From a bacterium (lineage in GTDB: Bacteria; UBP6; UBA1177; JAGLDR01), in the NCBI GenBank assembly GCA_023145475.1, contig JAGLDR010000027.1:1-51221 (forward strand): a DNA stretch of 51,221 nucleotides, read 5' to 3'. The number at the start of each line of letters is the position of its first letter. The first letter of the stretch is position 1. Under the pieces are notes generated by a model. That model saw only the letters and a list, made by a program, of their open reading frames with translations. It had not been told where the DNA came from and searched no databases. Position numbers and translations under genes: made by a program. Positions 5,683 to 24,349 of this stretch are shown in pieces.

Positions 5683-5729
5683 AGAAAAAGCACCCCTTTC
5701 AAAAACGATACGCCACACGATGCAACATA

Positions 5730-5794: not shown

Positions 5795-6133
5795 TTATAA
5801 CTTCCGAAGAGGTTCTCCGGCCAGAAAATGCATATGAAAATGAGGAACTTCCTGTCCTGCATCTGAGCCGTTATTAACTGTTAAACGGTACCCTGATGCC
5901 ACAACATCTAACTTTTGAGCTATTTTTTTTGCCAAATCAAAGGCGGCAGAGAAATGTTCCATCTCATCAGCAGGAATATCTGAAACAGTCGCGATATGTG
6001 CCTTCGCAATAATGAGGAGATGAATTTTATAAAGTGGAGAGATATCTTTGATTGCAAAAAAATATTCATTTTCTGCTATCACTTCAGAAGGTATTTCGCG
6101 AGAGGCGATTTTACAAAAAATACAGTTATTCAT
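5795..6133 (-). CDS. hinT: Histidine triad nucleotide-binding protein
   Basis: MNNCIFCKI start; GQEVPHFHMHFLAG histidine triad; overlaps the recJ stop. Confidence 0.9.
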   Translation of the reverse strand: MNNCIFCKIASREIPSEVIAENEYFFAIKDISPLYKIHLLIIAKAHIATVSDIPADEMEHFSAAFDLAKKIAQKLDVVASGYRLTVNNGSDAGQEVPHFHMHFLAGEPLRKL

Positions 6134-7871: not shown

Positions 7872-8998
7872 TTTTTATGACCTTGCTTTTCAATATATTT
7901 TTCAAGAAGAATGGTAACTGGTGTCGCAATAAAAATTGACGAATAGGTACCAATCACAACACCGATAGTCATCGCAAGAGCAAAGCCTCGGATAATACCA
8001 CCACCCCAAATCAGTAGGGCAACTAAAACAAAAATAGTCGTTGCTGATGTAAGAAGTGTACGATTCAGTGTCTCATTCAAACTGGTGTTAATCTTCATCG
8101 TGAGATTTGCACCTTTATTTGGATTATCCATATTCTCTCTGATTCTATCGTAAACAACAATTGTATCATTCAGAGAGTATCCAACAATCGTAAGCAGTGC
8201 AGCAACAATCGTCAAATCGAAGGTAATTCCAAGCAAAACAAAGATACCAAGCGTAATTGAAACATCGTGAATCAACGCAACAACAGCACCCGGAGAGAAC
8301 TGATAGTTAAAACGCAAAGCGATGTATAACAAAATGGCAATCAGTGCATACAAAAGCGACATAAAGGCATCAACTCGAAGTTGTTTTCCAACCTTTGGAC
8401 CAACTGCCTCAAGACGAAGGAGTGTCGGCGCAACCTTTAAAGTAGTCGTAAGTGAAGAGATTAACTTGTTAGAGATACCAACCAACAAAATGCGGTAAAT
8501 ATATCTGTCACCCATCTGCTTATATTCAATTTTTCCAGCAAGAGGCAACTTGTGTTTTTCGCCAACTGTTTTCAGCATTGTTTGATCAACACCTTTGTCA
8601 AACCAGAGCTCTATTCTATCGCCAACTTCACTGTCATAGTGCTTGTTAATCAACTTGGTGCCAGCAATTTTTGACTCAACATCTTTGATGTAAGCCTTAA
8701 TTTGCACATCATTAACAAGAGATATCTTGGGAAGTCGAATAAGAAATTCATCAGATTTCCCTTCAAACTGTTGAATCTCCATCTTTCCATACTCTGAAAG
8801 TGCTTGGCGAACTTGCCCAATTGTTGCACCATCTATACGAACTTGCAACTCTGTTCCACCTGCGAAATCGACACCATAGGTCAACCCCTTCACAAAGAAG
8901 AGCAAGAGGCTCAAAGTTACGATAACAGCCGAAATTATTCCAAAGGTCTTAAACCAACGATAAAAAGGAATAACTGGCGTCTTTTTAAACAATCTCAT
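7868..8998 (-). CDS. secF: Protein translocase subunit SecF
   Basis: GVDFAGGT, VGPKVG, GYSLNDTIVVYDRIRE, GTYSSIFIA. Confidence 0.96.
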   Translation of the reverse strand: MRLFKKTPVIPFYRWFKTFGIISAVIVTLSLLLFFVKGLTYGVDFAGGTELQVRIDGATIGQVRQALSEYGKMEIQQFEGKSDEFLIRLPKISLVNDVQIKAYIKDVESKIAGTKLINKHYDSEVGDRIELWFDKGVDQTMLKTVGEKHKLPLAGKIEYKQMGDRYIYRILLVGISNKLISSLTTTLKVAPTLLRLEAVGPKVGKQLRVDAFMSLLYALIAILLYIALRFNYQFSPGAVVALIHDVSITLGIFVLLGITFDLTIVAALLTIVGYSLNDTIVVYDRIRENMDNPNKGANLTMKINTSLNETLNRTLLTSATTIFVLVALLIWGGGIIRGFALAMTIGVVIGTYSSIFIATPVTILLEKYIEKQGHKK

Positions 8999-9020: not shown

Positions 9021-10748
9021 TTAAACAGAAAACTTTTTATAACCGATTTTGTGCAAGAAATGAAAAATCATTCTTGTTACAAAAATCGCCGTAAACATAC
9101 TACTAATGATACCAAGCAGCAAGGTGATTGCAAAGCCCTTTATTGGTCCACTTCCAAAATTCCAAAGGACAAATGCTGCAATTGCCGTCGTGAGATTAGC
9201 ATCAAAAATTGCTGACCACGCCTTGTCATATCCCGCATTAAGTGCCACAGTAAATGATTTGCCTGCTCGCAACTCCTCTCTGACTCTTTCAAAGATAATA
9301 ACATTCGCATCGACCGCCATACCAATCGTCAGAACAATACCTGCAATTCCAGGGAATGTCAGCGTTGCGCCAAACAGAGCGAGTCCAGCAAGCACAAAAA
9401 CGATATTCAAAAAGAGTGCAAAATCAGCAACCAATCCAGCAATGCCATACCAAAAAACCATAAAGAGAACAACCAAAAGGAAGCCAATCATAACAGACAT
9501 CTTTCCTTTTTGGATAGAGTCAGCACCAAGACTTGGACCAACTGTCCTGTTCTCCTCAAAAGTAACAGGAGCAGGAAGAGAGCCAGCTCTCAAAACAAGC
9601 GCCAAATCTTTTGCCTCTTGGAACATAGCATTGTAACCACCTGAAGAGTTCAGAGTTATCATCGCTTGTCCACCAGAAATTTTTGATTGAATAACTGGGG
9701 CAGAATTGACCTTATTATCAAGAACGATTGCCATCTTTCTTTTGGTAAATTTATCAGTAACTTCACCAAAAATACGAGCACCGTTTCTATCGAAGTTCAT
9801 ACTAACATATGGTTGATTTTTCTGTTGATCGATACTTACTCGAGCATCAGTTAACATCGCACCAGTAAGATATACGGCACGATTCATCAGATAGCCAGTA
9901 TAGCTTTTTTCGCCAGTTGCAAGAACTTTCTCTTCAAGTAAGAACTCCGTGCCTTCTGGAGCCTTCACTCGGTTATTTAAGAAATCAAGCAACAAATCTC
10001 TATCACTACTAGTAGCTGACTTATAGGCAAAAACATTGCCCTCTTTGTCTCCGCCACGCGATTGATGGATAGCGATACCTTCAGGAGTTTCACCTTGGTA
10101 GTTTCCTACAGGATCTTTATCCTCGGCAACGATACGAAACTCAAGCTGAGCAGTCTGTCCAATGATACTTCTTGCTCGTTGAATATCTTTGTAGCCTGGC
10201 AACTGAATCAAAATGTTGTTGTTACCCTGCTTTTGTACAAGCGGCTCTTTCAAGCCAAGCTCATCAATTCTGTTACGCAGAGTCTCTAACGCTTGATCTA
10301 TCGCACTCTGTTTCACACGATTTGCCTCTTCTTCACGCATTTTCAGCGTGTAGATATTCCCTGAAACAGCAACGCGTCTCAAATCACGGTAGTAGTCAAG
10401 AACTTCGTCCTTAAACTTATCTTTGTCTACACCATCGGCAACTTCAACTTGAATAGAGAGATTTTCAGAGCTCACTTTGACAGATTTAAATGCAATCTTT
10501 TGATCTTCTAATCGCATACGAATCTCATCACTACGACGATCCATCTTGTCTTGTAGTGCCTTCTCTGAGTCAACACTCAAAAGAAAGTGAATACCACCCT
10601 TTAAATCCAATCCAAGGCTGATGCCTTCGTTAATGTTTGACATCCAAGGATAATTCTTGTTTCCCATAAATGTCGGCAAAAGCGCAACTACCGCTGCTAC
10701 AATAAGCAGGAGAGTAACTATCGCTCTCCCTGTCCAATTCTTTTCCAT
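9021..10748 (-). CDS. secD: Protein translocase subunit SecD
   Basis: LGLDLKGG, RNRIDELG, VGPSLG, GMAVDANVIIFERVREE. Confidence 0.97.
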   Translation of the reverse strand: MEKNWTGRAIVTLLLIVAAVVALLPTFMGNKNYPWMSNINEGISLGLDLKGGIHFLLSVDSEKALQDKMDRRSDEIRMRLEDQKIAFKSVKVSSENLSIQVEVADGVDKDKFKDEVLDYYRDLRRVAVSGNIYTLKMREEEANRVKQSAIDQALETLRNRIDELGLKEPLVQKQGNNNILIQLPGYKDIQRARSIIGQTAQLEFRIVAEDKDPVGNYQGETPEGIAIHQSRGGDKEGNVFAYKSATSSDRDLLLDFLNNRVKAPEGTEFLLEEKVLATGEKSYTGYLMNRAVYLTGAMLTDARVSIDQQKNQPYVSMNFDRNGARIFGEVTDKFTKRKMAIVLDNKVNSAPVIQSKISGGQAMITLNSSGGYNAMFQEAKDLALVLRAGSLPAPVTFEENRTVGPSLGADSIQKGKMSVMIGFLLVVLFMVFWYGIAGLVADFALFLNIVFVLAGLALFGATLTFPGIAGIVLTIGMAVDANVIIFERVREELRAGKSFTVALNAGYDKAWSAIFDANLTTAIAAFVLWNFGSGPIKGFAITLLLGIISSMFTAIFVTRMIFHFLHKIGYKKFSV

Positions 10749-10797
10749 CGAACACTCCTGTTAACAATGCCTCAAAGGCATCTATATCATAAAAAAA

Positions 10798-11139
10798 CTA
10801 ATCCTTACCCTCTTCTGATTGCTCTGCAACCATGCCGGTAATCACATTGCGTTCAAACACAACGGTAACCTTTGGAGCAATCTCAATCTTCATGGTGGTA
10901 TCGCGAACTTCAACGATTTTACCACGCATTCCACTTGTTGTGGTAACCATATCTCCCTTTCGCAGCGTACTCAACATCTCTTGATGTTTTTTCTGCTGTT
11001 TTTTTTGTGGCATAATAACCAAAAAATAAAAGATACCAAAAATCAAGACCATCGGCAAAACAAATCCGGTCAACATCTCGCTACCGCCCGACTGACCAAC
11101 AACTGAATCATTCAATAATTTCAATGTGTTAAATAACAA
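10798..11139 (-). CDS. yajC: Preprotein translocase subunit YajC
   Basis: IFYFLVIMPQKKQQK...LRKGDMVTTTSGMRG; start reassigned to the TTG at 11139, 6 nt after AAGGAG. Confidence 0.9.
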   Translation of the reverse strand: MLFNTLKLLNDSVVGQSGGSEMLTGFVLPMVLIFGIFYFLVIMPQKKQQKKHQEMLSTLRKGDMVTTTSGMRGKIVEVRDTTMKIEIAPKVTVVFERNVITGMVAEQSEEGKD

Positions 11140-11253
11140 AGCAAACTCCTTCTCGTTTATCATAAAGCCCAGAAAGCGCTGATACAATAGCACAAAGACT
11201 CCTATCAAGCAAGAATTTAATTACAAGGTGTCAGAGTAGATGCTTTCGTTAGA

Positions 11254-12618
11254 TTAATGAGATAAAAAATCGAATTTTTCAGCGGCTTCAATCAGCACTT
11301 TTGCAGCATATTCAATCTGCTCTTTTGTATGCTCTGAGGTAACAAAAAGACGAATCCTCGCCTCACCTTTAGGAACGGCAGGAAAGTTCATCGGCTGACC
11401 ATCAAGCCCGTTGCGTTGCAACCAATCACTCAGCTCAAGGGTTTTGGTCTCATCACCATAGACAACGGGGACAATCCACGATGTTGTGTTAAGAAGGTTA
11501 ACCTTGTCTTGCAGCAGCTCTCTGATAAGTGTTACATTCTCTCTAATTCTCTTGCGTCGTGCATCACCATCTGCACTCCTCCCAAGCTCAAGTGCCTTAT
11601 GTGCAGCACCAATAATAGCCGGAGGAATAGCCGCCGAGAACATCCGACTGCGAGCATACCAGTTTACATATCTTGTTATCTCTTTCCTTGCAATCAGTGT
11701 TCCGCCAACCGAGCAAAATGCTTTAGAAAAGGTAATAATGAAAAGGTCAACTTGATCAAGAACGCCCTGCTCCTCTGCAACACCACGACCGTTTTCCCCA
11801 GCAATCATAATTGAATGAGCTTCATCAACAAGCGAAAATGCATCATATCTTTTTGCCAATTCAACAACGCCTTTGATGTTTCCTCTATCGCCATCTGCAC
11901 TGTAAACGCCCTCAATACAGATAAGTTTTCTTACTTTATCTTTTTCAATCGTTTTGAGAATTCTTTCCAAATCCTCCATATCATTATGCTTAAAAAGACG
12001 CATTTGCGCACCTGAAAGGGCTGCACCCTCCATAAGTGATGCATGTGCGGTCTCATCAAGAATAATATAACTTCCTGGCTTCATAAAAGAAGAGATTGTA
12101 CCAGTATTGACTGCGTATCCCGATGAAAAGAGGCTTATGCCGTGCGTTTTAGTCGAAAAACCCATAAAATCAATCAAAGATTTCTCAAAATCATCGTGAA
12201 GTTGAAATGTTCCACTGATAACAGGAGAACTTGCGGCACCTGTTCCGTATCTTTCAATCGCCGCTTGGGAGGCCTTCTTCACCTCTGGATGATAGCCATA
12301 TCCAAGATAGTTATAGCTTGAGAAGTTGACCATCGTCAACTCTTTCCCATCTTCTCTAATCAGCTCAATCTGCTCTTTTTGCTCATGTTGCCGAGGCGAC
12401 TCAAAGGCATAGAGAGCATTCTCCTGCGCCTTATCAACCCATGCACTGAACTGCTTAATCTCTTGCAAATCGGGAGAGTTTCCAAGGGCAAACATATCAT
12501 AGGTTTGCTTCTTAAAATCTGAGGGTATCTCAGCAACTTGCACCGCTGATGTCTTCTGTTTCTTTTCAAGCATTTTCTTGCGAAGAAGTGCTTTTTTCTC
12601 TGCTAATGATAATGCCAT
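11254..12618 (-). CDS. PLP-dependent alpha-oxoamine synthase (SPT/BioF/KBL family) with N-terminal docking-like extension
   Basis: NFSSYNYLG, FSSGYAVN, AHASL, EGVYSADGD, VDEAHS, ITFSKAF (PLP Lys), ARIRLF; start MALSLAEKK is 1 bp after the PKS stop. Confidence 0.9.
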   Translation of the reverse strand: MALSLAEKKALLRKKMLEKKQKTSAVQVAEIPSDFKKQTYDMFALGNSPDLQEIKQFSAWVDKAQENALYAFESPRQHEQKEQIELIREDGKELTMVNFSSYNYLGYGYHPEVKKASQAAIERYGTGAASSPVISGTFQLHDDFEKSLIDFMGFSTKTHGISLFSSGYAVNTGTISSFMKPGSYIILDETAHASLMEGAALSGAQMRLFKHNDMEDLERILKTIEKDKVRKLICIEGVYSADGDRGNIKGVVELAKRYDAFSLVDEAHSIMIAGENGRGVAEEQGVLDQVDLFIITFSKAFCSVGGTLIARKEITRYVNWYARSRMFSAAIPPAIIGAAHKALELGRSADGDARRKRIRENVTLIRELLQDKVNLLNTTSWIVPVVYGDETKTLELSDWLQRNGLDGQPMNFPAVPKGEARIRLFVTSEHTKEQIEYAAKVLIEAAEKFDFLSH

Positions 12619-12619
12619 C

Positions 12620-15600
12620 CTATTCCCCTTTCTCCTCTTCTGCTGCAAGTAAAGCGTCTATTTCCTCTTCACTCATATCATCAAGAGAGCCAAGAATCTC
12701 ATCCTCTTCTGTGATAATTTTTGGAAGCTGTTGGTCTGCCATCTGCATAATCGTTGGACCGTTCAGCAACTCCATACTGGTTATTGAAAGTCCAAACTCT
12801 GCTTGAATGGTACTACTCAGCTCAAGCGTCATCAATGAATCAACACCGAGGTTACTAATACTTTCGTTCATATCGATTTTGTCTGCTTGAAATTTAAGTA
12901 CGCGGGCAAAAACACCTCGCAACTTTTCAGCAACCAGTGTCAATCTCTCCTCTGGGTCTACAGCGAGCAACTCTTCTGTGAGTGCCGCAAGCTCTTCATT
13001 CAGCTCATCTCCACCGCTATTTTGCTCTGCAAGAATCGCAAAGCGACTCCCCTGTGCAGCGCGAGTGTTTGCCTGAAGCCATGTCGCCCAATTTATATCA
13101 AAAAGACCGACTTGACTCTCTTCTTGATGAGAGAGAATCAAATCAAGTGCATTAAGAACGGTATCGGTTGAGAGTCCATAAATACCTGATGCAGCTAAAA
13201 TATCCTCTAAATCATCATCACGAGAGACAACACCCGTTTCAGATAAAACGCCCCAGTTAATTGTCTGTGCAGGCAGATTAAGAGACTTTCTATACCACGC
13301 AAAGCTATCAAGCCATGCATTTCCCGCAACATAGTTTGCTTGACCGTTGTTTCCAACTAGCGAGGATATTGAACTGAAGTTAACAAAGAAATCGAGTGCA
13401 ATTCCAAGCTCCTGAGTCGCTGTATGAATGTTCCACGCACCCATAATTTTTGGTGTCAACACCTTTTTGAATATATCTCTATCTAAATTGACAAGAAAGC
13501 CATCTTCAAGCACCATCGCACCGTGAAAAACACCTTTAAGTGGCGCTTTTTTACTGTTTGCACGCACGATAACAGCGTGCATCTTTTCACTGTCCGCAAC
13601 ATCAACAGCCTCAACGACAACCTCTGTTCCTCGAGATTCCATCTCAGCTATTGCCTCTTTTGCCTCTGCACTCTTTGCACCACTTCTTGAAAGCAGTGAG
13701 AGACGAGTTGCCCCTGCCTTGCTCAACCAACCAGCAATTGCAAGTCCAAGCCCGCGTGTTCCGCCAGTAATCATATAGGTTGCATCTTCAGCAAGCCACT
13801 CTTTATCTTTATGCACGGTTGCTTCAACATCACAGGTAGTAAAATTGACAATAACCTTACCAATTTGTCGTGATTGTCCAAGAAAACGGAAGGCATCTCC
13901 AATCTCATTTGCTTGAAAAACTTTCACAGGATCTTTGCTGTATGTGCCATTTTCAAAGTTTGTGACAATCTCTTCCATCATCGATTTAATGGTGTCTTGT
14001 CGGTCGTTAAACATACGATCAATATCAATACCCGCAAAGGTGATATTTCGGTTGAAGTTATTCATTGGCAAGCCAGTATTTTCTGTGATATCTTTTTTAC
14101 CAATCTCAACAAAACGGCCATAAGGTGCAAGAAGATAGAAACTTTCAATCATCGTATCACCAGAGATTGCATTGATAACGACATCAACACCCTTACCGCC
14201 AGTATCTCTTTTGATGTGATCTATAAAATCAAGAGAGCGACTATCGTAGACATGCTTAATGCCAAGAGATCTCAAATAGTCTCGTTTTTCGTCGTTTCCA
14301 GCAGTTGCATATATCTCTGCACCTATCTCTTTTGCGACTTGGACAGCAGGAAGACCAACGCCGCCTGTCGCATTGTGAATCAAAATCTTTTCGCCCTTTT
14401 CAAGACGGCCAGCATATTCGATTGCCCGTTTTGCAGTCAAAAAGCCGATAGTATTTGTCGCCTCTTCCATTGTCAAAGTCGACGCTTTAGGAATAACATA
14501 AAAATCAGGAACTGTTGCGTATGTTCTAAAGCCACCACCAACAATTGGTGTTACCACTTCATCCCCTACCTTCCATCTCGTCACCCCTGTACCAACAGCA
14601 ACAACATGGCCAGAGACCTCCATCGCAATTCCATTCCCAAAATAGGTATCTTCGAGTGCTTTTGGATTAATCTGTCCATACACCTTGAGCAAATCTTTAA
14701 AATTAAGAGATGCAGAGTGGATACGAATCTCTATTTCGCCCTCTTGTGGCACGACGCGCTCTGTCTGTCTGAATTCAAAACTATCCAAATTTCCAGGCTG
14801 TGTAATATCGGCAACCAGTGGCATATCTGTTGATACTGTCTCAACAGAAACTGTGGTATCTTCAATTGCACTTCCCACTAAACGGCGAATAAATCTGCGA
14901 GAACCTCTCACAACGATATCTGAATCGCCCTCCTTCGAAAGTGCCTCTTCAACAATGTGAAGAGCATCTGAAAGAGCAGCAATATCAACTGAACGACAAG
15001 TCAACTGTGGATGTTCATTCTCAACAAGTTGCCCAAGTGAGGTCAGCGCAGTTGTTATAAGAGAGAATGAGTCGTCAACTTCAAAAGGCTGTCCATTTTT
15101 TGTAACCGTTGTAATGGTTAACTCTCTGGTAATTTCATTTGCTGCAAATGCTTGAACAGTATAGGTAAGTGGCATTAGAGCATCTGTTATCAACTCAATA
15201 TCGACATCATTCCCGACCTCTTTTGTCGCGGTCAAATCAATGAGCGTATCAAAAGGCTTTGATTTCAACAGTGCAAAAAGCTCTTTAAAACTTTCGGATG
15301 AAACTGCATCAAGAGTAAAAAGAGTATCAGAAACAGCTGCTGTTTTTTCACCCATATCAACACGGTAGAATGAAGTTCCTTTCTGTTTTAGCTCATCGGT
15401 AACAGCTGCGGTCAACGCCTCTTCACCTGCCAAAACAACAACGCCAGAAGAGAGAGCAGCACTCTTATCAAACTTTTTCTCTTCCCACTCTACTGCATAA
15501 ATCAACTTATCAAGTGCACCCTCTTTTGCCTTCTCAGCGCGAGGAATCACTTGACACTTTAAATTGTCAACATGAGCAAGTACAACACCGTTATCATCAA

Positions 15601-18600
15601 CAAGGGTGATATTTCCCCAAATCGCACTCTCTGTCTGCTTAGTTATTTCACCAAAACTGTAACATTTACGCCCAGGAGCTGAAATCAAACTCAACCGATC
15701 GATAGTAACAGGAACAAATGGATCAGAGGAGCCATCATCATCAGAAACAATGGCAATCAGTGATTGAAAAGAGGCATCTAAAATAGTCGGATGAAGTAAA
15801 TACTCACCTTTTGTATCTTCCATCTCTTCGTGTGCTTCAATGCGAGTTAACACCTGTTTGTGGTTGGTATAAATCTCTTTTACTGGTCTAAACCATGGTC
15901 CATAGTTAAGCCCTTGATCATCTAAATCACGATAAAACTTCTCTGCATCAATCTCTGTATTTAACTCAAACTTCAGTTCATCAATTGCGAGCTTCTCAAA
16001 GGGTGTCGTCCGTGACTTCTCAATAATACGCCCTGTTGCGTGAAGCTTCCACGAACCATCTTCATCAAGTCTATCTTTGCTGTGCATCGAAAACTTTTGT
16101 GATTCAGAGTTGAAGCTGCTCATCAACATTGGCAAAGTATTCGGCTGAATTGCAAGCACATTATGAAGTGTAATATCGGTAATAGTTGCGGCAACTTCAC
16201 CAAAAATATTATGATGCATTGCAAGAGCCGCATCACAATATCCAGCACCTGGGAAAATGGTCATTCCATCAACTTTGTGATCAGGAAGATAGGGAAGAAG
16301 ATGTTTGTTTACCTCAACTTGCCATGTTGGATTTGGTGTCCGTAACCACTCGTTAAAATAGATATATCCTGGTCGTCCAAGACGATCCTCTCGTGATCGA
16401 GCACTCTCTTGCCAATAGATATCTCTCTGCCAAGGATAGGAGGGCAAATCAATAAAGTGACCTTTCGTTGGTAACAGTTTTTCCCAATCAGGCGAATGGC
16501 CAATGGTATGCATCGTGCCAAGTGAGGCATAATAGGTATTGCGCTCTTCGAGTTTTCTATTCAGTGTCTGTACGGTTTCAGCTTGTGCTCCAAGCTCTGC
16601 AACCACCTCTTTAATTGAGTTTTTAAGCACTGGATGTGGTCCAACCTCTACAAAATCACAACTTTCAAGATTCGCAAGAATAGAGCGAATACCATCAGCA
16701 AAACGAACACTTCCGCGAGCGTTATGCCACCAGTAATCTGCGGTTATCTCTTTTCCATCTATCATTTTTCCTGTTACGGTCGAATAGAGTGGCGTCGTTG
16801 TTGTCTGTGGTTTTAACTTTTTAAGAACAGAAAAAAGTTCATCGTGAATTGGATCCATATGAGATGAGTGGTAGGCAACCTCAACTTTTAACGCACGGTT
16901 AAAAACGCCTCTCTTATCTAAATTTTCACCAATTTTCTTTAATGATGATTCATTTCCGGAGAGTGTTACCGCTGTCGCACTGTTGATTGCGGCAATCGAA
17001 ACATCATTATATGTGGCTATCTCTGCCATTGCGTCTTGCTCTGAAAGACCAATTGCAATCATTCCACCACCTTGATTTGCCACACTCTGCTGGAGACGGC
17101 TGCGGTGATAACTGACAAGTACACCATCTTCAAGTGAGAGTGCACCCGAAAGATAGGCCGCTGAAACCTCGCCAACACTGTGGCCAATTACTGCATCAGG
17201 CACAACACCGTGTGATTCAAGAAGAGCGGCAATGCCAGCTTGAATAACAAAGTTTGCCGGTTGAGCAATACGAGTTTGAGACATATTTGTTGACTTCTCA
17301 TCCTTCATCATCTCTTCAAGGATAGACCAGCCACTATACTTCTTAAAAAGAGCATCACACTTATCAACAACAGTACGGTAAACATCCTCTGTTTCATAGA
17401 GCTCACGCCCCATATTCCACCACTGAGGACCCATACCTGTACAGACAAAGACAAGTGGTTTTTTATCAAGTGAACTCATCTGAAATGAGACCGCTTTCTC
17501 TGCCATGCCATCTTTTCCGTACGCTTTCAGTGAGGCAATCAAATCCTCTCTTGAGTCAGCAACAATTGCCAAACGGTTTTTATGGTGCGAACGGCGAGTA
17601 CTTACACTATAGACAAAATCTGTCATCGTAACATCTTTATCATTAAGCACATTAACATAGTTTAAAGCCTGCTGACGCAGTGCATCATCGCCCCGTGCGG
17701 AGACAGGAACAAGCCATTTATGCCCATCTTCAAGCGTTACATCAACAGGAGGAATTTCCTCAATCTGAGGCGCTGTTGAAAGCAGTGCATGTGCATTCGT
17801 TCCACCATATCCAAAAGAGTTGACGCTACTATAAACGATACCTTCTGTTGGAAGTGGCTCAGGTTTTACTGGCACTTGCAATCTAATATTTTCAAAATCC
17901 ACTGCTGGATTTGGTGTGTTAAAGTGAATATTAGGCGCAACCACTCGGTGTTTCATCGTAAGAGCGGCTTTGATAATACCCGCAACACCTGCACCAGCTT
18001 CCATATGACCAATATTACTTTTGATTGAGCCAACCCACGCTTTATCATCAACATCACGCACTTCTTGAAAGACTGCGTTTAGTGCATTCAATTCTGCTGG
18101 ATCACCTGCTTTTGTCCCTGTTCCATGTGCTTCAACATAGGCAACATCTTTTGCCGAGACACCTGCTCTTCCATATACTTCACGCACTAACTCTTCCTGT
18201 GCTACTGGGTTTGGCAGTGAAATACCAGCTGTTTGACCATCTTGATTTGCGCCAGTTTCAATAATAACGGCATCCACTCGGTCACCATCTTCAAGCGCCT
18301 TTGCAAGTGGTTTCAGGACGATAAACCCAGCACCTTCAGCGCGGGTATATCCATTTCCTTCACCATCAAATGCTTTACAACGGGCGTGAGTACTTAAAAA
18401 GCCACCTTTACACATCGCAATCGGATAATCAGGCTTTAACATAATGTTTACGCCACCAACAAGTGCCATATCACAGTCACCGTTTCTCAGACTTTGAACG
18501 GCATAGTGCGTTGCAATAACCGATGATGAACAGGCAGTATCCATTGTTACTGCGGGTCCACGCAAGTTGTACATATATGAAATTCTATTGGACATAATAA

Positions 18601-19102
18601 CCATGGTTGAACTGGTTGCTGTGTGAGAATTTATCAAATCTCTATTGAGCTCACCAAGCTGAATTAACTTGTTATCAACCGTAAACCCACCAACAAAAAC
18701 ACCGGTTTTTGAACCGTATATCTTCTCTCTTGTCAAACCAGCATTTTCAAATGCCTCCCACGAAACTTCAAGAAGAAGTTTTTGTTGGGGATCGACAACA
18801 GCAGCCTCACGAGGAGACATCCCAAAAAAGAGTGGGTCGAACTCATCAACTCGCTCTTGAAGAAAGCCACCCTGTTTTACAAACATTTTACCGGGTGCAT
18901 CTTTATCCTCATCAAAGAATTTGCGAATATCCCAACGATCTTCAGGAATATCACGAATTCCATCAACACCATTCAAAAGATTTTGCCACAACTGTTCAGG
19001 ATCTGCTGCACCACCAGGAAAACGGCACCCGATACCGATAATTGCAATTGGCTCCCTTTTGTAGACTGTTTGCTTTGCTGTTTGACTCACTGAGGCCTCC
19101 AT
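12620..19102 (-). CDS. Single-module fully reducing type I PKS, KS-AT-DH-ER-KR-ACP, no TE
   Basis: KS DTACSSS/HGTGT/KSNIGH; AT GHSVG and VEVAYHS; DH HKVDGMTIFP and HPTILDASFQ; ER LIHNATGGVG; KR ITGGTRGLG, VLED, GQANY; ACP LGVDSL. Confidence 0.96.
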   Translation of the reverse strand: MEASVSQTAKQTVYKREPIAIIGIGCRFPGGAADPEQLWQNLLNGVDGIRDIPEDRWDIRKFFDEDKDAPGKMFVKQGGFLQERVDEFDPLFFGMSPREAAVVDPQQKLLLEVSWEAFENAGLTREKIYGSKTGVFVGGFTVDNKLIQLGELNRDLINSHTATSSTMVIMSNRISYMYNLRGPAVTMDTACSSSVIATHYAVQSLRNGDCDMALVGGVNIMLKPDYPIAMCKGGFLSTHARCKAFDGEGNGYTRAEGAGFIVLKPLAKALEDGDRVDAVIIETGANQDGQTAGISLPNPVAQEELVREVYGRAGVSAKDVAYVEAHGTGTKAGDPAELNALNAVFQEVRDVDDKAWVGSIKSNIGHMEAGAGVAGIIKAALTMKHRVVAPNIHFNTPNPAVDFENIRLQVPVKPEPLPTEGIVYSSVNSFGYGGTNAHALLSTAPQIEEIPPVDVTLEDGHKWLVPVSARGDDALRQQALNYVNVLNDKDVTMTDFVYSVSTRRSHHKNRLAIVADSREDLIASLKAYGKDGMAEKAVSFQMSSLDKKPLVFVCTGMGPQWWNMGRELYETEDVYRTVVDKCDALFKKYSGWSILEEMMKDEKSTNMSQTRIAQPANFVIQAGIAALLESHGVVPDAVIGHSVGEVSAAYLSGALSLEDGVLVSYHRSRLQQSVANQGGGMIAIGLSEQDAMAEIATYNDVSIAAINSATAVTLSGNESSLKKIGENLDKRGVFNRALKVEVAYHSSHMDPIHDELFSVLKKLKPQTTTTPLYSTVTGKMIDGKEITADYWWHNARGSVRFADGIRSILANLESCDFVEVGPHPVLKNSIKEVVAELGAQAETVQTLNRKLEERNTYYASLGTMHTIGHSPDWEKLLPTKGHFIDLPSYPWQRDIYWQESARSREDRLGRPGYIYFNEWLRTPNPTWQVEVNKHLLPYLPDHKVDGMTIFPGAGYCDAALAMHHNIFGEVAATITDITLHNVLAIQPNTLPMLMSSFNSESQKFSMHSKDRLDEDGSWKLHATGRIIEKSRTTPFEKLAIDELKFELNTEIDAEKFYRDLDDQGLNYGPWFRPVKEIYTNHKQVLTRIEAHEEMEDTKGEYLLHPTILDASFQSLIAIVSDDDGSSDPFVPVTIDRLSLISAPGRKCYSFGEITKQTESAIWGNITLVDDNGVVLAHVDNLKCQVIPRAEKAKEGALDKLIYAVEWEEKKFDKSAALSSGVVVLAGEEALTAAVTDELKQKGTSFYRVDMGEKTAAVSDTLFTLDAVSSESFKELFALLKSKPFDTLIDLTATKEVGNDVDIELITDALMPLTYTVQAFAANEITRELTITTVTKNGQPFEVDDSFSLITTALTSLGQLVENEHPQLTCRSVDIAALSDALHIVEEALSKEGDSDIVVRGSRRFIRRLVGSAIEDTTVSVETVSTDMPLVADITQPGNLDSFEFRQTERVVPQEGEIEIRIHSASLNFKDLLKVYGQINPKALEDTYFGNGIAMEVSGHVVAVGTGVTRWKVGDEVVTPIVGGGFRTYATVPDFYVIPKASTLTMEEATNTIGFLTAKRAIEYAGRLEKGEKILIHNATGGVGLPAVQVAKEIGAEIYATAGNDEKRDYLRSLGIKHVYDSRSLDFIDHIKRDTGGKGVDVVINAISGDTMIESFYLLAPYGRFVEIGKKDITENTGLPMNNFNRNITFAGIDIDRMFNDRQDTIKSMMEEIVTNFENGTYSKDPVKVFQANEIGDAFRFLGQSRQIGKVIVNFTTCDVEATVHKDKEWLAEDATYMITGGTRGLGLAIAGWLSKAGATRLSLLSRSGAKSAEAKEAIAEMESRGTEVVVEAVDVADSEKMHAVIVRANSKKAPLKGVFHGAMVLEDGFLVNLDRDIFKKVLTPKIMGAWNIHTATQELGIALDFFVNFSSISSLVGNNGQANYVAGNAWLDSFAWYRKSLNLPAQTINWGVLSETGVVSRDDDLEDILAASGIYGLSTDTVLNALDLILSHQEESQVGLFDINWATWLQANTRAAQGSRFAILAEQNSGGDELNEELAALTEELLAVDPEERLTLVAEKLRGVFARVLKFQADKIDMNESISNLGVDSLMTLELSSTIQAEFGLSITSMELLNGPTIMQMADQQLPKIITEEDEILGSLDDMSEEEIDALLAAEEEKGE

Positions 19103-19362
19103 ATCTTGTATAGCAATATTCTAAAAATACACTCTATTGCGCAATCATAGTCGATTACGATAAAACCAGGCTCTTGTTAATGCAATTTTTGTGCCTGAAA
19201 AACAGGCAATAATTACAAGAGAATATAAAAGGGAACGATAGATTAGTGTAAATATTTCATAGCAAAGTAAAAATTTATATTATTATAAAATGAGCTATTA
19301 AAGCAAAGTAAAAATGTCCGACTTGAACGATTTGTTTGATTTTTTATAATAGAATGCCGCTC

Positions 19363-19403
19363 GGGGTCAAACCGACGCACAAATAGTGCATCGGAATTAC
19401 CCC
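19363..19403. repeat. Palindromic dispersed repeat, copy 2
   Basis: ggggtca-aa-ccgacgcac-aaata-gtgcatcgg-aa-ttacccc; same core as 269-309. Confidence 0.85.
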
Positions 19404-19432
19404 CTTCACGTGACTTAACACCTTTCTCAAAT

Positions 19433-21628
19433 CTACTCCTCACAATCGGGATCCTTTCCGCCGTCATTAATTTCCCATTTATAAGTGCTGATTAGTTTCT
19501 GCCTCGCTGCTTCGCTCGTGCAGTATTTGCTGCCGCCTGCGTCAAATCGCACACCGAAACGAGGTGTTAATTTACTCCACGCTTGCAGTGTATCATCATA
19601 ATTTGCGGTGGAGAGAGTCACGCCTTCAAACATTTCTAACATACTTGTTTTTGTTGGTGGATCAAAAGGTCCGCCATTATCCATTGGATATATATTTGAA
19701 ATATCCCACGCAGCTAAACTTTGATCAAATGAGGTGGCTCCTTTGAATAGTGAGTACATATTCTCAAAGTTTGAAACATCCCATGAGCTGAGATCTTGAT
19801 TAAACGAAACGGCATTTTGAAAAACAAACGGCATCGATAAAAAATTTGAAGTGTCCCAAGAATTTATTTTACCATTGAATGATTGTGCTCCTAAAAACAT
19901 AGATACAATAAATGGAGTATTACTCATATCCCAAGAATCCAAACTTTGATTAAATGTAACATTGTCTCTAAATAGAGAGCTCATATCTTTTATTTGTAAA
20001 ATATCCCAAGAGTCTATTTTTTGATTAAATGCTACTGCCTCCCTAAACATTCCATGTATGTTTTCTACTTTTGACACATTCCACAAGTCTATTTCTTGAT
20101 TAAATACTACTGATCCTAGAAACATCTCTTGCATTGTGGTGACGCTTGAAACATCCCACTTATCTATTTTTCCGTTAAATGTCACTGATTCTGCAAACAT
20201 TCTTTCCATTGTGGTGACTTTTGAGGTGTTCCAACCATTTAAATCGTGGTTAAATGCTTCTGCTTTTTCAAACATTCCACTCATATCGGTGACATTTGAA
20301 ACATCCCATGAACTGATATCTTGGTTGAATGCTTCCGCTCCTTCAAACATTCTACTCATATCGGTGACATTTGAAAAATCCCATAAGCTGATATCTTGAT
20401 TAAATGCTTTTGTATATGAAAACATACCACTCATATCGGTGACATTGGAAACATCCCATGAGCTAATATCTTTATTAAAAACGCCACCAAACATCCAGCT
20501 CATATTAATAACATTCGAAACATTCCAAGAATTAAGATCCTGATTGAAATAAGCGTTAGCAAGCATTCCTCTCATATTTGTGACACTCGAAACATTCCAC
20601 GAATTGATGTTTTGATTAAATGATGATCCACTAAACATACTACCCATATCGGTGACATTAGAGACATCCCACGAACTGATATCTTGATTAAACCCTGATT
20701 CCTTAAACATCATATTCATATCGGTAACATTGGAAACATTCCATCCACTGATATCTTGATTAAAATTCTTAACTCCATAAAACATCATATTCATATTGGT
20801 AACACTAGACACATTCCATCCACTGATATCTTGATTAAAATCTTTTACTCCACAAAACATTCCATTCATATCCTGTATATGTGAGAGATCCCATGAACTG
20901 ACGCCCTGATTAATCACCATTATTTTAAAGAACATAAATTTTGCACTTATAACATTTAGAAGATTTGGAGCATCTATCGCCTTCAAACTCAGATTTTCAC
21001 AACTAGAAAAAGCTTTTTCCATTGATTTCCATTCAATTGTTCCCCACTGTTCAATCGACACAATCTTTTCATTATCATAGTCATTACGAGAAGAGTTGTC
21101 ATCAAAGTAAATCCGAGGGAAATCTCCTGTGATTGAAACGGTGTAAGTTCCCGGTGTTTCATATTCACAGGTGTAATCTCCCGTTTGATGGTGCGCCTCT
21201 ACAATACCATCACTATTGCAGTCAATAGCGTAATTGTATCCATCACCTTGTGTTGGAATAATGATTTGATTATCTTCGGAAACGCCCTCGTTGTCAGTCT
21301 TCCAAGTGGTAACAAATGCTCCTGGAATAAACTCACAATTTCGACCACTGAAACCAGTGCCTAAGCAGTTGCAATGATAACCATCAGTTTTGTCAGTGCA
21401 AATTCCGCCGTTTTCACAAGGGCTTGAGTCACAATAAATGATAATAATATCTTCATCCTGAATTTCATCTTTATCAGGAATCAAATCTTGATCAAAAGTG
21501 GTATCTTTATCGTGGACAACATCATCAATAATAACTGAATCTTCATCTGAAGTTGCAATGTTGTGTACCGAGTGAGTGCAACCTATTTGTAAAAAGAGAA
21601 GTAGTAATAGTAGTTTTTTCATTTTCAT
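19433..21628 (-). CDS. Surface lipoprotein: EGF domain plus BspA-like/DUF285 (PARCEL) repeats
   Basis: Lipobox QIGC; EGF CDSSPCENGGICTDKTDGYHCNCLGTGFSGRNCE; FVTTWKTD domain; many ~25-aa FNQDISSWDVSNVTDMSGMF repeats; start overlaps upstream stop (TGATG). Confidence 0.88.
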   Translation of the reverse strand: MKMKKLLLLLLFLQIGCTHSVHNIATSDEDSVIIDDVVHDKDTTFDQDLIPDKDEIQDEDIIIIYCDSSPCENGGICTDKTDGYHCNCLGTGFSGRNCEFIPGAFVTTWKTDNEGVSEDNQIIIPTQGDGYNYAIDCNSDGIVEAHHQTGDYTCEYETPGTYTVSITGDFPRIYFDDNSSRNDYDNEKIVSIEQWGTIEWKSMEKAFSSCENLSLKAIDAPNLLNVISAKFMFFKIMVINQGVSSWDLSHIQDMNGMFCGVKDFNQDISGWNVSSVTNMNMMFYGVKNFNQDISGWNVSNVTDMNMMFKESGFNQDISSWDVSNVTDMGSMFSGSSFNQNINSWNVSSVTNMRGMLANAYFNQDLNSWNVSNVINMSWMFGGVFNKDISSWDVSNVTDMSGMFSYTKAFNQDISLWDFSNVTDMSRMFEGAEAFNQDISSWDVSNVTDMSGMFEKAEAFNHDLNGWNTSKVTTMERMFAESVTFNGKIDKWDVSSVTTMQEMFLGSVVFNQEIDLWNVSKVENIHGMFREAVAFNQKIDSWDILQIKDMSSLFRDNVTFNQSLDSWDMSNTPFIVSMFLGAQSFNGKINSWDTSNFLSMPFVFQNAVSFNQDLSSWDVSNFENMYSLFKGATSFDQSLAAWDISNIYPMDNGGPFDPPTKTSMLEMFEGVTLSTANYDDTLQAWSKLTPRFGVRFDAGGSKYCTSEAARQKLISTYKWEINDGGKDPDCEE

Positions 21629-24129
21629 CACCACATAAATAGAGTGTTTGAGGTGCCTGAATTTTGATTACAGGTTGGAGTAGTCCATGGTAAAATATAT
21701 GGAGTTGAGTTAATCTTAGGTTTTGAAGAGAGATAAAAAGTACTATAGAAGTGTTCTATATTACTAGAAGCATTTGAAAGAGTATAGGTGACATCAGCAA
21801 AATAAAATGAGGTGGAATTATTGAAATTATCAGGTAAAAACATGGTATCATTTAAGGTATAAATAAGATCTCCATTTAGAATAAAGTGCATTGGTAAACT
21901 TACTTTATAATAATTCAATCCTTGCTCTTCCAACACTTCATTACTACTATAATAAAAATTAACTTCCTCAATATTTAAATTATTAGGATTATAAACTATA
22001 ACCTCTGGTTTATATTTACCATCTTGATTAACAGGAGTTGTAACTGTTGGGATATTTGGTATTGTTCCTAATCTATCATCATCTAAGTTAACATCTTGAT
22101 TATTATTTGGAAAATCAAGATGATTTTTTAACCAGTGATAAGTTCCGCTATTGAGACGCATATAAAGCATATGAAGAAACTCAACTGTATCACCTATTTG
22201 AGGTGTAACCCAATCATGCCCTCTGTTATATTGAATTGAAAATCTGCTTAAATCCTTATTGGCCATAGAATCATAAGTGCTATTCAGAGCATTCAGTGGA
22301 AAATATTCATCTGTTGCACCATTAAGAAAAAGTGTTGGCACACGATTTCTTGTTATAAGTGCATCTTTTCCAACAATTTGATCTATAAATGCCATCCAAT
22401 CGGGTGTTGTATCATCCTGCGCGTTATCTGTACAAACTCTTAAAGCATTTATCCAAGAATTCTGTGAAGCGACCGCATCTTCAATCGCAAGAGATGAAAT
22501 AGTGGGAACAGCAACTTTAATTCTATCATCAACTGATGATGCCAACAGTGTTGCAATACCTCCAGCAGAGCCACCAAGCATGGCAACATTCTCCATGTCA
22601 ATGTCATCATTCTCGGCGGCAAGTGTGATAGCTCGCATTGCGGCGACAGTGTGTCCCCACATCCAAGAACCTCGTGGATCTGGTGAGGAATCAAAAAACT
22701 TATCATTTTTATCAGGAACACTATAATAAGTATGATCTGTGCCTGTTGACCATTCAGTGTTAAAATTAATTTCCGTCAAACCTCCGCTCTCATCTCGGAT
22801 AGGTTCTTTATTTATAAGATCCCATTCATAAGGACCTCTTCCAGGACCTGAATAATAAATTACAAACATATTAAGCTCTGCAGCAAGAGTTTTTGTATAT
22901 TTATGACTAGCAAACCCACCGCCACCATGAGACACAATTAAAAGTGGCAATTGTTCTGTTACATTTGCCGGCTTTGCCGCATAAAAATAAATTTCAATAT
23001 CTTCTTTCTCTCCATTATTATATTCCCATGATTTGAACTTTCCTTCATAGGAAATCACATCTTTTGATATACAATTTCCAAGTTTATCACTAGTTCCAAG
23101 AATACAGGCATAGGTTTCTGTTTCATTAAAATTATTCCAAGAATCAGTGCTATTTGCGATGAACGGATTTTCTGTGGTGATTGCCGCCATTTCACTATCA
23201 AGCCATGAAATACAAGTTAAATCTGAGTTTGCACCATTTAAATAGCCACTATCACAATTACAAAAAGGTTCATTTGTACTATAGTTATAATGACAAGTTC
23301 CATCATTACATCTATCAGTGAAAAATGGAGAAGGACAATCTCCCACATACATTGCATCATCACATGAAGGTATATACAGGCGCCTACAGGCAATATGCTC
23401 TCGTATCCACTGCTTGAAAACGGTCAAATCATCATCCATTATTATATATATCGAGCCATTTGCCTCAAGGAAAGAAAATGAAAGAAGCGAACTCGATTGC
23501 AACACCGGTGAAAGATCACTCACACTGCTTCCCGCAATATTCAAACTTTCCAGCGAAGTGAGCAGTTCAACACCTTCAATCGAAGTAAGAGCGATGCTAT
23601 TACAACTGAGAGTTGTTATCTGATTAATATTTGTATAACCATTAATATCCATTTCAGCGGTAATACATGCCTGAAAACCAGGATCAGGAACCGTAAACAG
23701 CTCAACGGAATGATTCAGCGTCGCAGCAGCGTAATCACCACCCCAATAATCTTCAACCTGCATATTGACCACAACGGCGCCACTATCTGGATGCGTATAA
23801 TTAAAATCAACATGATCAGACGCAATCGCCGTGCAAACACCACTGCTCATACAATCAAGAAGCGTCCCATTTGTGCTGTGCCAATTGTTTTGAGGATCTT
23901 TTATATTCCTATAATAATCATAATCTTCTGGATAGCTTGGATTGATTGAAAACCATGATGAGAACTGCATTCTATAGTGACAAACGCCCGTCTGTTCGCA
24001 CTCGGAGCCATTCAAAATGGTGATTGTGTCAACTGACGCAAAAAGATTCATAACAAGCAAAATAGTTGCAACAAAAACGGCTAGTTTGGCACGATTCTTA
24101 CAAAAAATAAAACGAGAAAAAAGACTCAT
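21628..24129 (-). CDS. Secreted mosaic protein: internalin-like LRR, EGF-like domain and alpha/beta hydrolase
   Basis: Signal-like N-terminus after AAGGAG RBS; VPDPGFQACI cap plus LRRs; C-x-C-D-S-G-Y EGF-like segment; SHGGGG, GGSAGG nucleophile elbow, GATDE, RGH. Confidence 0.7.
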   Translation of the reverse strand: MSLFSRFIFCKNRAKLAVFVATILLVMNLFASVDTITILNGSECEQTGVCHYRMQFSSWFSINPSYPEDYDYYRNIKDPQNNWHSTNGTLLDCMSSGVCTAIASDHVDFNYTHPDSGAVVVNMQVEDYWGGDYAAATLNHSVELFTVPDPGFQACITAEMDINGYTNINQITTLSCNSIALTSIEGVELLTSLESLNIAGSSVSDLSPVLQSSSLLSFSFLEANGSIYIIMDDDLTVFKQWIREHIACRRLYIPSCDDAMYVGDCPSPFFTDRCNDGTCHYNYSTNEPFCNCDSGYLNGANSDLTCISWLDSEMAAITTENPFIANSTDSWNNFNETETYACILGTSDKLGNCISKDVISYEGKFKSWEYNNGEKEDIEIYFYAAKPANVTEQLPLLIVSHGGGGFASHKYTKTLAAELNMFVIYYSGPGRGPYEWDLINKEPIRDESGGLTEINFNTEWSTGTDHTYYSVPDKNDKFFDSSPDPRGSWMWGHTVAAMRAITLAAENDDIDMENVAMLGGSAGGIATLLASSVDDRIKVAVPTISSLAIEDAVASQNSWINALRVCTDNAQDDTTPDWMAFIDQIVGKDALITRNRVPTLFLNGATDEYFPLNALNSTYDSMANKDLSRFSIQYNRGHDWVTPQIGDTVEFLHMLYMRLNSGTYHWLKNHLDFPNNNQDVNLDDDRLGTIPNIPTVTTPVNQDGKYKPEVIVYNPNNLNIEEVNFYYSSNEVLEEQGLNYYKVSLPMHFILNGDLIYTLNDTMFLPDNFNNSTSFYFADVTYTLSNASSNIEHFYSTFYLSSKPKINSTPYILPWTTPTCNQNSGTSNTLFMW

Positions 24130-24349
24130 GACGGACTCCTTTAAATTATGCAAGAAACAACATTCTATTTTTTATAACATTTGCTGAAAAAGATGTCAAG
24201 GGGATATTTGAAGGAGAGTATCCACTTCTCTCAACAATGACTTGATATTTGTCAGCTAAACAATAATTTTAAAATAATTTCAATAAATATCTCTCTCTAT
24301 GGTTACTAAACTCTTAAATGTTTGTGCTAACCAATTAGGAGAAGCTATT

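Follow-up and report, generated by a model that had tools for sequence, protein, structure and literature searches.

The bacterial ceramide pathway comprises serine palmitoyltransferase (Spt), an acyltransferase (bCerS) and a reductase (CerR), the genes of which are often clustered (PMC11087976, PMC11334938). Another entry into sphingoid chemistry is found in the fungal fumonisin (Fum1/Fum8) and sphingofungin systems, where the chain built by a highly reducing iterative polyketide synthase (PKS) is released by an alpha-oxoamine synthase (AOS) to give a sphinganine analogue (PMC12134224). The sgaAB genes of Pseudomonas fluorescens MYb115 likewise encode an iterative type I PKS and an AOS, the latter with SPT activity, and make C24-C28 sphinganines as well as phosphoglycerol sphingolipids (Peters et al., 2025, Nat Commun; PMC12134224). 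Purified PfSgaB joins acyl-CoAs to L-serine and hardly accepts Ala or Gly. SgaC, a KDSR-like short-chain dehydrogenase/reductase (SDR), is only proposed to act in the pathway; PfSgaAB is presented as a secondary-metabolite biosynthetic gene cluster, and 6101 clusters homologous to sgaAB are counted in NR, mostly in Burkholderia (PMC12134224). Here we describe a two-gene PKS-AOS pair in a 51,221-nucleotide contig (JAGLDR010000027.1, assembly GCA_023145475.1; hereafter the window) of an uncultured marine lineage (GTDB: UBP6; UBA1177; JAGLDR01). On PKS-derived bacterial sphingolipids, our literature search yielded Peters et al. and its preprint (February 2024) and nothing else. Since PfSgaAB is already published, the general idea of a PKS-AOS sphingolipid route is not new, and the premise of the initial annotation of the window, that characterised bacterial Spts use fatty acyl-CoA or acyl carrier protein (ACP) thioesters, is outdated.

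By analogy with these systems, the pair very probably forms a PKS-fed route to a sphingoid-type amino ketone. That it serves as a self-contained starter unit for a sphingoid long-chain base, displacing Spt upstream of bCerS and CerR, appears reasonably probable from the same analogy and from the distribution of the genes. The two proteins and their parts lie in the window as follows.

12620..19102, minus strand: type I PKS of 2160 aa with one fully reducing module and no release domain, from Pfam order and motifs
17768..19054, minus strand: ketosynthase (KS), residues 17-445, active-site Cys in DTACSS at 188-193 (PF00109, PF02801)
16496..17452, minus strand: acyltransferase (AT), residues 551-869, GHSVG at 640 (PF00698, 7.8e-73)
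15530..16330, minus strand: dehydratase (DH), residues 925-1191, HKVDGMTIFP (PF21089, PF14765)
13844..14743, minus strand: enoyl reductase (ER), residues 1454-1753, GGVG at 1580 (PF08240, PF00107, PF13602)
13241..13783, minus strand: ketoreductase (KR), residues 1774-1954, GGTRGLG at 1780 and YVAGN at 1924 (PF08659, 1.2e-59)
12734..12928, minus strand: ACP, residues 2059-2123, GVDS at 2086 (PF00550, 1e-13; predicted local distance difference test score, pLDDT, about 90 in the model)
12623..12733, minus strand: acidic C-terminal tail of the PKS, residues 2124-2160, a candidate docking helix from an alignment of nine PKSs
11254..12618, minus strand: SPT-like AOS of 454 aa (PF00155, 1.1e-42, residues 96-442; model pLDDT 88.7)
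12550..12618, minus strand: basic N-terminal helix of the AOS, residues 1-23, a candidate docking helix from its motif and the AlphaFold model

Pfam matches and catalytic motifs agree with the earlier description of a lone KS-AT-DH-ER-KR-ACP module with intact motifs and no thioesterase, reductase or condensation domain; none of these three release families is among the 16 Pfam families listed for the PKS, which ends 37 residues past the ACP. The KS is matched at residues 17-269 (7.5e-86), with its C-terminal part at 278-394, and carries the further motifs EAHGTGT (324) and KSNIGH (361). The AT specificity motif is VAYHS. PKS_DH_N (925-1007) and PS-DH (1046-1191) cover the DH, and ADH_N (1454-1538) and ADH_zinc_N (1581-1709) the ER. 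The catalytic motif patterns behind these assignments are those we take to be general PKS knowledge. The best whole-length NCBIfam match is the mycobacterial model NF041183 (Pks2), which spans residues 18-2124 and scores 1248 bits, far under its cut-off of 2400 bits. By their E-values, the domain identities of the pair and its neighbours are far beyond chance.

The junction between the two genes is equally compact. The open reading frame list gives the PKS as 12620..19102 and the AOS as 11254..12648, both on the minus strand, but the true AOS start codon is ATG 12618, just downstream of a ribosome-binding stretch (AAAGGGGAA). The PKS stop codon TAG ends at 12620 and a single spacer base, 12619, precedes the AOS ATG; the AOS is therefore 454 aa long (11254-12618) and the gap is 1 bp, as first noted for this pyridoxal phosphate (PLP)-dependent enzyme. 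A same-strand, single-module type I PKS followed at this distance by an AOS has the SgaAB-type gene order. Over 10600-19600, predicted promoters and terminators were no more numerous than in shuffled sequence and are therefore uninformative on operon structure. Recent horizontal arrival was rejected as far as composition goes: the PKS region has a GC content of 41-43% against 40.6% for the genome, which is no signal. A tblastn search of plasmids with the window AOS gave zero matches at 1e-80. A search of sequencing runs returned four rows that cover the stretch or part of it, all DNA runs from two studies and two of them possibly the source of this DNA; no RNA run was among those listed.

Five positions or sets of positions are invariant in the AOS family alignments: K299 (in TFSK), D265 and H268 (in DEAHS), H141, and R421/R423. 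In this Aminotran_1_2 enzyme (PLP fold type I), K299 is the PLP lysine, and the Asp/His residues that hold PLP are present. The closest solved structure is the Spt of Sphingobacterium multivorum (8guh/3a2b, E 4e-64), with which the AOS was aligned in its 8guh form. Every curated NCBIfam cut-off lies above the AOS scores: 322 of 426 bits for bioF (TIGR00858), 295 of 460 and 243 of 493 for the Kbl models NF005394 and TIGR01822, and 293 of 640, 272 of 500 and 242 of 670 for the Spt models NF047600, NF047599 and NF047603. Many relatives at 50-57% identity occur in metagenome-assembled genomes. A scan of one genome per species confirmed 197 relatives, and the best 80 of them, kept as loci, come from Bacteroidota, Planctomycetota, Nitrospinota, Chloroflexota, Acidobacteriota, Myxococcota, Fidelibacterota/Marinimicrobia and Pseudomonadota.

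Two trees place the window AOS in a strongly supported multi-phylum family outside BioF and Kbl. In a 96-row tree, the 80 loci and the window AOS form one clade (Shimodaira-Hasegawa-like approximate likelihood ratio test, SH-aLRT, 100; stem 1.24), apart both from an Spt-like clade of the window's relatives and from Escherichia coli BioF and Kbl, which sit with paralogues from the window's own genome. A mixture-model tree of 31 rows, chosen from the first tree with four Burkholderiaceae rows added, supports the family at 100/99 and its sister relationship to a second PKS-linked AOS class, from Burkholderiaceae, at 96/92. Both PKS-linked classes join the Spt-like clade at 88/77. Outside lie a BioF clade (97/95) and a Kbl clade (91/98).

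These data bear on a reading to which we give almost no weight, that of a housekeeping BioF or Kbl whose gene happens to adjoin that of a PKS. The highest NCBIfam scores of the AOS are indeed for bioF and Kbl (322 and 295 bits), both under the cut-offs, whereas the trees put it outside both clades, and the 1-bp junction and the pairing across phyla speak against chance adjacency. Moreover, the window's genome (G000; 2.35 Mb, 246 contigs, 94.6% complete, 40.6% GC) has its own BioF-like gene (contig C209), a Kbl fragment (C140) and bioB, together with a divergent Kbl-like AOS of 410 aa (C9). BioF or Kbl identity was thus rejected on the sub-threshold scores, the trees and these separate genes, and the grouping with BioF/Kbl that the initial annotation had named as fatal to its proposal did not appear. 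The C209 protein scores 401 bits against the bioF cut-off of 426 and groups with E. coli BioF (97/95). Its gene directly follows those for an FlxY-like acyl-CoA ligase (NF053551, 439 bits, cut-off 520) and a CrtD-like desaturase (5589-9462 of C209, plus strand) and is not beside biotin genes, so that its BioF role is uncertain. As a separate observation, two proteins of the same family as the window AOS, P0114 (526 aa) and P0323 (632 aa), are ACP-AOS fusions, with a PP-binding (ACP) domain in the same chain as the AOS domain according to precomputed Pfam annotation.

The amino acid that the AOS takes is a finer question. An enzyme that uses Ala, Gly or another amino acid would make a 1-deoxy-sphingoid or other long-chain amino ketone; the curated Spt models are not reached, the identity of 34-38% to canonical Spt is as low as between AOSs of differing specificity, and work on the Black Sea raises the possibility that Spt-like enzymes accept amino acids besides serine (PMC11334938). 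We nevertheless consider this quite unlikely, as PfSgaB, which alone among PKS-linked bacterial AOSs has been characterised, takes almost nothing but L-serine (PMC12134224), the family is nearer to Spt than to BioF or Kbl (88/77) and the best solved match is an SPT.

The distribution of the genes in the window's order connects the pair with ceramide synthesis. The set comprised 41 genomes: G000, 35 others of its order and 5 from outside. Outside G000, orthologues of the two genes occur only in G001, a member of another family of the order; the identity is 64% for the AOS and, over KS-AT, 62% for the PKS. In 13 others there is instead a ~400-aa AOS, at 34-38% identity to that of the window. On NF047600, the 'serine palmitoyltransferase' model with a cut-off of 640 bits, the two that were scanned reach 602 and 623, and ten of the 13 form one clade with 100 support in the 96-row tree. 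In all 13 the next gene encodes a protein of ~375-390 aa, without a Pfam match in the two relatives scanned, and in G003, G006 and G011 a protein of the NAD-epimerase family follows. These Spt/bCerS-like/CerR-like runs match the arrangement described for spt, bcerS and cerR in the sources cited at the outset.

G000 itself keeps the last two genes of such a run on contig C105:

6486-7610 of C105, minus strand: bCerS-like GNAT protein, 374 aa (PF00583, 4.9e-6)
5503-6483 of C105, minus strand: CerR-like epimerase-family protein, 326 aa (PF01370, 5.4e-36)

The two proteins are 40-46% identical to those encoded beside Spt in the relatives, and bCerS is itself GNAT-like; a PDB sequence search with the bCerS-like protein gave nothing useful. 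In G002, G006 and G011 the order is citryl-CoA-lyase-like, Spt, bCerS-like. On C105 the lyase-like gene (56-57% identical) and the bCerS-like gene share 4 bp, so the Spt slot is empty, and the CerR-like gene is next; G001 likewise has its bCerS-like gene next to its CerR-like gene, without an Spt. The genome search for Spt, bCerS, CerR and BioF that the initial annotation had proposed thus yields bCerS-like and CerR-like genes on C105 and a BioF-like gene on C209, and no canonical Spt in the assembly of G000, nor in that of G001. A bCerS-like gene is present in 15 of the 36 genomes of the order. Twelve of these have Spt beside it, the PKS-AOS pair is present in two (G000 and G001), none has both, and G019 (65% complete, with a truncated match) shows neither; because the genomes are not independent and G000 and G001 may reflect a single event, this complementarity is a pattern and not a statistical test.

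Two further observations belong to these genomes. The C105 run (locus L103; 2827-8458, minus strand) contains the citryl-CoA-lyase-like gene (C-terminal domain of Citrate_synt), the GNAT gene and the epimerase-family reductase gene, followed by genes for a GFO/IDH/MocA oxidoreductase, a hexapeptide acyltransferase and a DegT aminotransferase. The last three resemble an amino-sugar cassette and may be a candidate head-group unit for a glycosphingolipid; a DegT gene also follows the CerR-like gene in the relative L101. Separately, five genomes of genus g6 of the order (G010, G012, G022, G034 and G035) contain reading frames of 1718-1754 aa that are 28-30% identical to the window KS-AT. These are a different PKS-like or polyunsaturated-fatty-acid-synthase-like gene, and the genus is without Spt, the bCerS-like gene and the PKS-AOS pair.

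The scheme that best accounts for the pair runs as follows. The single-module reducing PKS would iterate in the manner of a fatty acid synthase and build a long saturated acyl chain on its own ACP, as its domain set and PfSgaA suggest. The AOS would catalyse the PLP-dependent decarboxylative Claisen condensation of an amino acid, most likely L-serine, with the acyl-ACP thioester, and by analogy with PfSgaB and Fum8 this condensation would release a 3-ketosphinganine-like amino ketone. From gene distribution and synteny, the pair would replace the canonical soluble Spt in G000, and the 3-keto base would be N-acylated by the bCerS-like GNAT protein of C105 and reduced by the CerR-like reductase to ceramide-type membrane lipids. 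The original proposal, that the PKS chain is released by the AOS into a membrane lipid rather than an antibiotic, is favoured by the evidence and in part supported: the AOS is neither BioF nor Kbl, the pairing recurs in at least six phyla, and bCerS-like and CerR-like genes are kept with no canonical Spt. Its appeal to the pair's place among housekeeping genes is weak, since the position upstream of yajC-secDF is not common to G001, the only close relative with the pair.

A rival account, which we judge unlikely but take seriously, makes the pair a stand-alone secondary-metabolite cassette for a free very-long-chain sphinganine-like or other amino-polyketide lipid, in line with the proposal for P. 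fluorescens and unconnected to bCerS and CerR; the latter would draw on an Spt missing from the assembly or on a different AOS paralogue. PfSgaAB is, after all, described as a secondary-metabolite cluster (PMC12134224), the distribution is patchy (2 of the 41 genomes), and G000 has three other AOS paralogues, of which that on C9 (410 aa) is very divergent. Against this stand the 12 genomes with Spt, 2 with PKS-AOS and 0 with both among bCerS carriers, the empty Spt slot on C105, and the grouping of the other G000 paralogues with BioF or Kbl. The position of the pair differs between G000 and G001, as for a mobile cassette, whereas the identity between the two genomes (64% for the AOS, 62% for SecD) fits long residence and not recent transfer. 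The history of the pair may be old vertical inheritance with rearrangement, or an old transfer.

The displacement of Spt by the pair remains the preferred reading, and several points weigh against it, the differing genomic position among them. Both assemblies are incomplete (G000 94.6%, in 246 contigs; G001 85%), so a canonical spt could lie elsewhere. The bCerS-like and CerR-like genes are on a different contig from the pair, and their identity rests on a weak GNAT match (4.9e-6), an epimerase match and the Spt synteny of the relatives. As the AOS reaches no curated cut-off, serine use rests on analogy. The only phosphopantetheinyl transferase found in G000 is of the AcpS type. No SDR is among the window neighbours and no close homologue of the KDSR-like SgaC was found in G000; given that Peters et al. 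merely propose SgaC as a pathway member, its absence may not be defining. Finally, G000 lacks both genes that usually follow the AOS in this family (described below), having only generic SDR matches of 25-29% identity.

Linkage of this AOS family to a PKS is not peculiar to the window. In a tblastn survey of the 80 AOS loci with the window PKS, a full collinear PKS ends 27-241 nt before the AOS in 6 of the 47 loci that have at least 7 kb of upstream DNA, and the matches cover 2136-2146 of the 2160 residues of the window PKS. The six are:

L009: Chitinophagales
L016: Saprospiraceae
L020 and L021: Anaerolineales
L033: Paraburkholderia sp.
L059: Acidobacteriota

Identity to the window PKS over ~2140 residues is 45% for L016, 44% for L009, 40% for L059, 38% for L033 and 37% for L020. 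Two further loci, L008 and L046 (Aquabacterium), end inside such a PKS; L008 is probably the locus of G001, and the two are counted once. PKS linkage thus recurs in at least six phyla. In sixteen loci there are only KS(-AT)-like matches, 3.9-8.9 kb upstream of the AOS. L011, the sole one of these inspected, has a discrete ACP gene and an SDR gene directly before the AOS and a second SDR gene after it, which looks like a dissociated version of the PKS-AOS arrangement. At the other loci, mostly from Fidelibacterota/Marinimicrobia and many from Bacteroidota, a PKS was not seen in the DNA available. The PKS-linked rows are scattered on the trees (four changes on the 96-row tree, three to four on the 31-row tree), and the AOS family is therefore not defined by PKS linkage.

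The gene after the AOS varies as well. A protein of ~235 aa without a Pfam family is encoded directly after the AOS in 43-45 of the 80 loci (for example L033:11374-12084, L016:11358-12092 and L048:11297-11995). It occurs in PKS-linked loci (Paraburkholderia, Acidobacteriota, Anaerolineales, Saprospiraceae) and in unlinked ones (Fidelibacterota), was not found in L008, and gave nothing useful in a PDB sequence search. In ~30 of the 80 loci, the AOS is followed instead by a closely similar SDR (at least 69% identity); these loci are all labelled Bacteroidota, except for two labelled Saccharibacteria that group with Bacteroidota in the tree.

The paired proteins share terminal motifs that suggest physical contact. 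The PKS tail contains the motif [IV]D-x-[ML]-[STD]-E-x-[EK]-[LI]-[DN]-x-L-[LI] in all nine PKSs that precede an AOS of the family, at the end of a variable linker that follows the ACP. In the AlphaFold model of a 121-residue fragment, the tail is predicted as a helix (residues 106-119, pLDDT 64-68) after a confident ACP. All nine linked AOSs, in turn, carry L-[ST]-[LI]-E-[EQ]-K-[RK] in a basic amphipathic N-terminal stretch; the model of the window AOS has a helix at residues 5-23 (pLDDT ~74), a low-confidence linker at 22-29 (below 50) and a confident core. The acidic tail helix and the basic N-terminal helix may therefore be a candidate docking pair, by which the AOS would probably be held on the PKS. 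The word 'docking' is absent from the main text of PMC12134224.

Two points qualify such a role. Over all 80 loci, the N-terminal expression is found in 8 of 8 PKS-linked AOSs and in 1 of 72 others, and in the window AOS; having been drawn from the linked rows, it makes the 8 of 8 circular, so that the informative part is the 1 of 72. The AOS of L010 (Candidatus Jettenia ecosi record, 9977-11344) has the motif as ISLEEKR, and no PKS was found in the 10 kb upstream, nor in the genome with an ER-KR-ACP query. The motif was accordingly rejected as a predictor of a PKS partner. The combined proposal, in which PKS-AOS displaces Spt in an otherwise ordinary ceramide pathway by means of a previously undescribed docking pair conserved across at least six phyla, is plausible but falls somewhat short of an even call.

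A second PKS-linked AOS class, the prevailing one in Burkholderiaceae, emerged from that family. The ER-KR-ACP part of the window PKS was searched against 120 genomes of the family to which the L033 genome belongs, with G163 left unscored. Besides G042, the source of L033, the search found a PKS of 2230-2645 aa with 35-38% identity in 11 genomes, and three more have weaker matches (E about 1e-60). Four loci were fetched:

L140: from G063
L141: from G083
L142: from G118
L143: from G108

Their PKSs (2545-2604 aa) have ~400 extra residues between DH and ER, and their AOSs (448-482 aa) are 31-32% identical to the window AOS. In three of the four a gene that is LpxC-like by its motifs lies between PKS and AOS. 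At least two PKS-linked AOS classes thus appear from these sequences, 31-32% identical to each other. No Burkholderia or Pseudomonas name is among the best 120 relatives of the Paraburkholderia AOS (L033), and, as Burkholderia is the main carrier according to Peters et al., PfSgaB may belong to the Burkholderiaceae class.

The surroundings of the pair in the window are as follows.

4165-5718, minus strand: neutral-ceramidase-like protein, catalytic domain only (PF04734, 1.5e-36)
5795-6145: HIT protein, downstream of the pair
6126-7871: recJ, downstream of the pair
7868-8998: secF, downstream of the pair
9021-10748: secD, downstream of the pair
10798-11208: yajC, downstream of the pair
19433-21634, minus strand: DUF285/PARCEL repeat surface protein, 733 aa, upstream of the pair
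21628-24153: S9-like hydrolase, upstream of the pair
24299-29239, plus strand: bacterial alpha-2-macroglobulin, 1646 aa, with MG2, A2M, TED and receptor-binding domains, on the PKS side
33774-34676, minus strand: DAGK_cat/YegS-type lipid kinase (PF00781, 9.4e-24; PF19279, 6.2e-15), 14.7 kb upstream

The direct neighbours confirm that no tailoring, transport or regulatory genes are adjacent to the pair, as first annotated. The yajC-secD-secF-recJ block is kept in G001, G006 and G024 without a PKS upstream, the pair of G001 being located elsewhere. The nearest relatives of the G000 SecD bear just the label 'bacterium', while those of the next tier (48-50% identity) are assigned to Myxococcales, Deltaproteobacteria or Desulfobacteraceae. 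The neutral-ceramidase-like gene lies 5.5 kb downstream of the AOS gene on the same strand; its product matches PDB 4wgk (3.9e-19) and 2zws (2.1e-13) with the HTHSGP motif aligned. The gene is found in 2 of the 41 genomes, G000 and, weakly, G040. The protein could have a role in ceramide turnover or in the reverse reaction. The Caulobacter ceramide kinase belongs to the broad DAGK_cat/YegS-type family of the kinase listed above.

The presence of spt is the usual marker of sphingolipid producers in genome and metagenome surveys, and curated models would score G000 as Spt-negative although candidate downstream ceramide genes and a PKS-AOS pair are present. If the pair does displace Spt, spt-based surveys undercount producers, and PKS-fed sphingolipid synthesis would be a widespread primary-metabolic alternative and not a host-associated secondary-metabolite curiosity. 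The long-chain bases would then perhaps be of unusual length, which matters for environmental sphingolipid biomarkers, and the tail and helix motifs would offer a simple sequence signature by which AOSs coupled to a PKS can be recognised, and a point of attack for the engineering of chain release. If displacement is wrong, the pair is one more SgaAB-like cluster among the thousands already reported.

Among other PKSs, the mycobacterial MAS-like iterative enzymes (Pks2 and similar) have the same domain order as the window PKS, which nonetheless scores far under the Pks2 cut-off; MAS-like PKSs pass their chains to acyltransferases and are not known to use an AOS. The fungal Fum1/Fum8 and sphingofungin systems are multi-gene toxin clusters with many tailoring enzymes, none of which is beside the window pair, and the solved sphingofungin enzyme SphA matches the window AOS only at E 2.7e-23. 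The canonical Spt-bCerS-CerR pathway of Caulobacter, Bacteroidota and others has the same first-step chemistry, and G000 keeps genes that resemble its latter two. Canonical Spt, however, takes acyl-CoA or a discrete acyl-ACP, is ~400 aa long and has no N-terminal helix, and the window AOS is distant from that of the relatives both in identity (34-38%) and on NF047600 (293 bits against the cut-off of 640).

The Burkholderiaceae PKS/LpxC-like/AOS cluster shares with the window the reducing single-module PKS and an AOS with a basic N-terminal helix, and the two AOS groups are sisters (96/92). Its PKS measures 2545-2645 aa, the PKS tail is without a DEMSExELDALL-type motif and its AOS helix differs from that of the window. 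The nearest described system is PfSgaAB, which like the window pair consists of two genes, for a monomodular iterative type I PKS and, after it, an AOS. The likeness is set at the level of architecture and of the shared PKS-linked AOS super-clade, not of the PfSga sequences; the pair therefore resembles a characterised kind of cluster, an outcome that the initial annotation had named as counting against its proposal, and the general idea is published. The hosts differ: PfSgaAB belongs to a host-associated proteobacterium, the window pair to an uncultured marine lineage. Here, the pair co-occurs with bCerS-like and CerR-like genes, which the consulted sections of PMC12134224 do not connect to the PKS route. 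To the known systems the window pair adds a member from an uncultured marine lineage in minimal two-gene form, comparative evidence for a probable stand-in for the Spt of a bCerS/CerR pathway, and a conserved motif pair by which the AOS may dock on the PKS.

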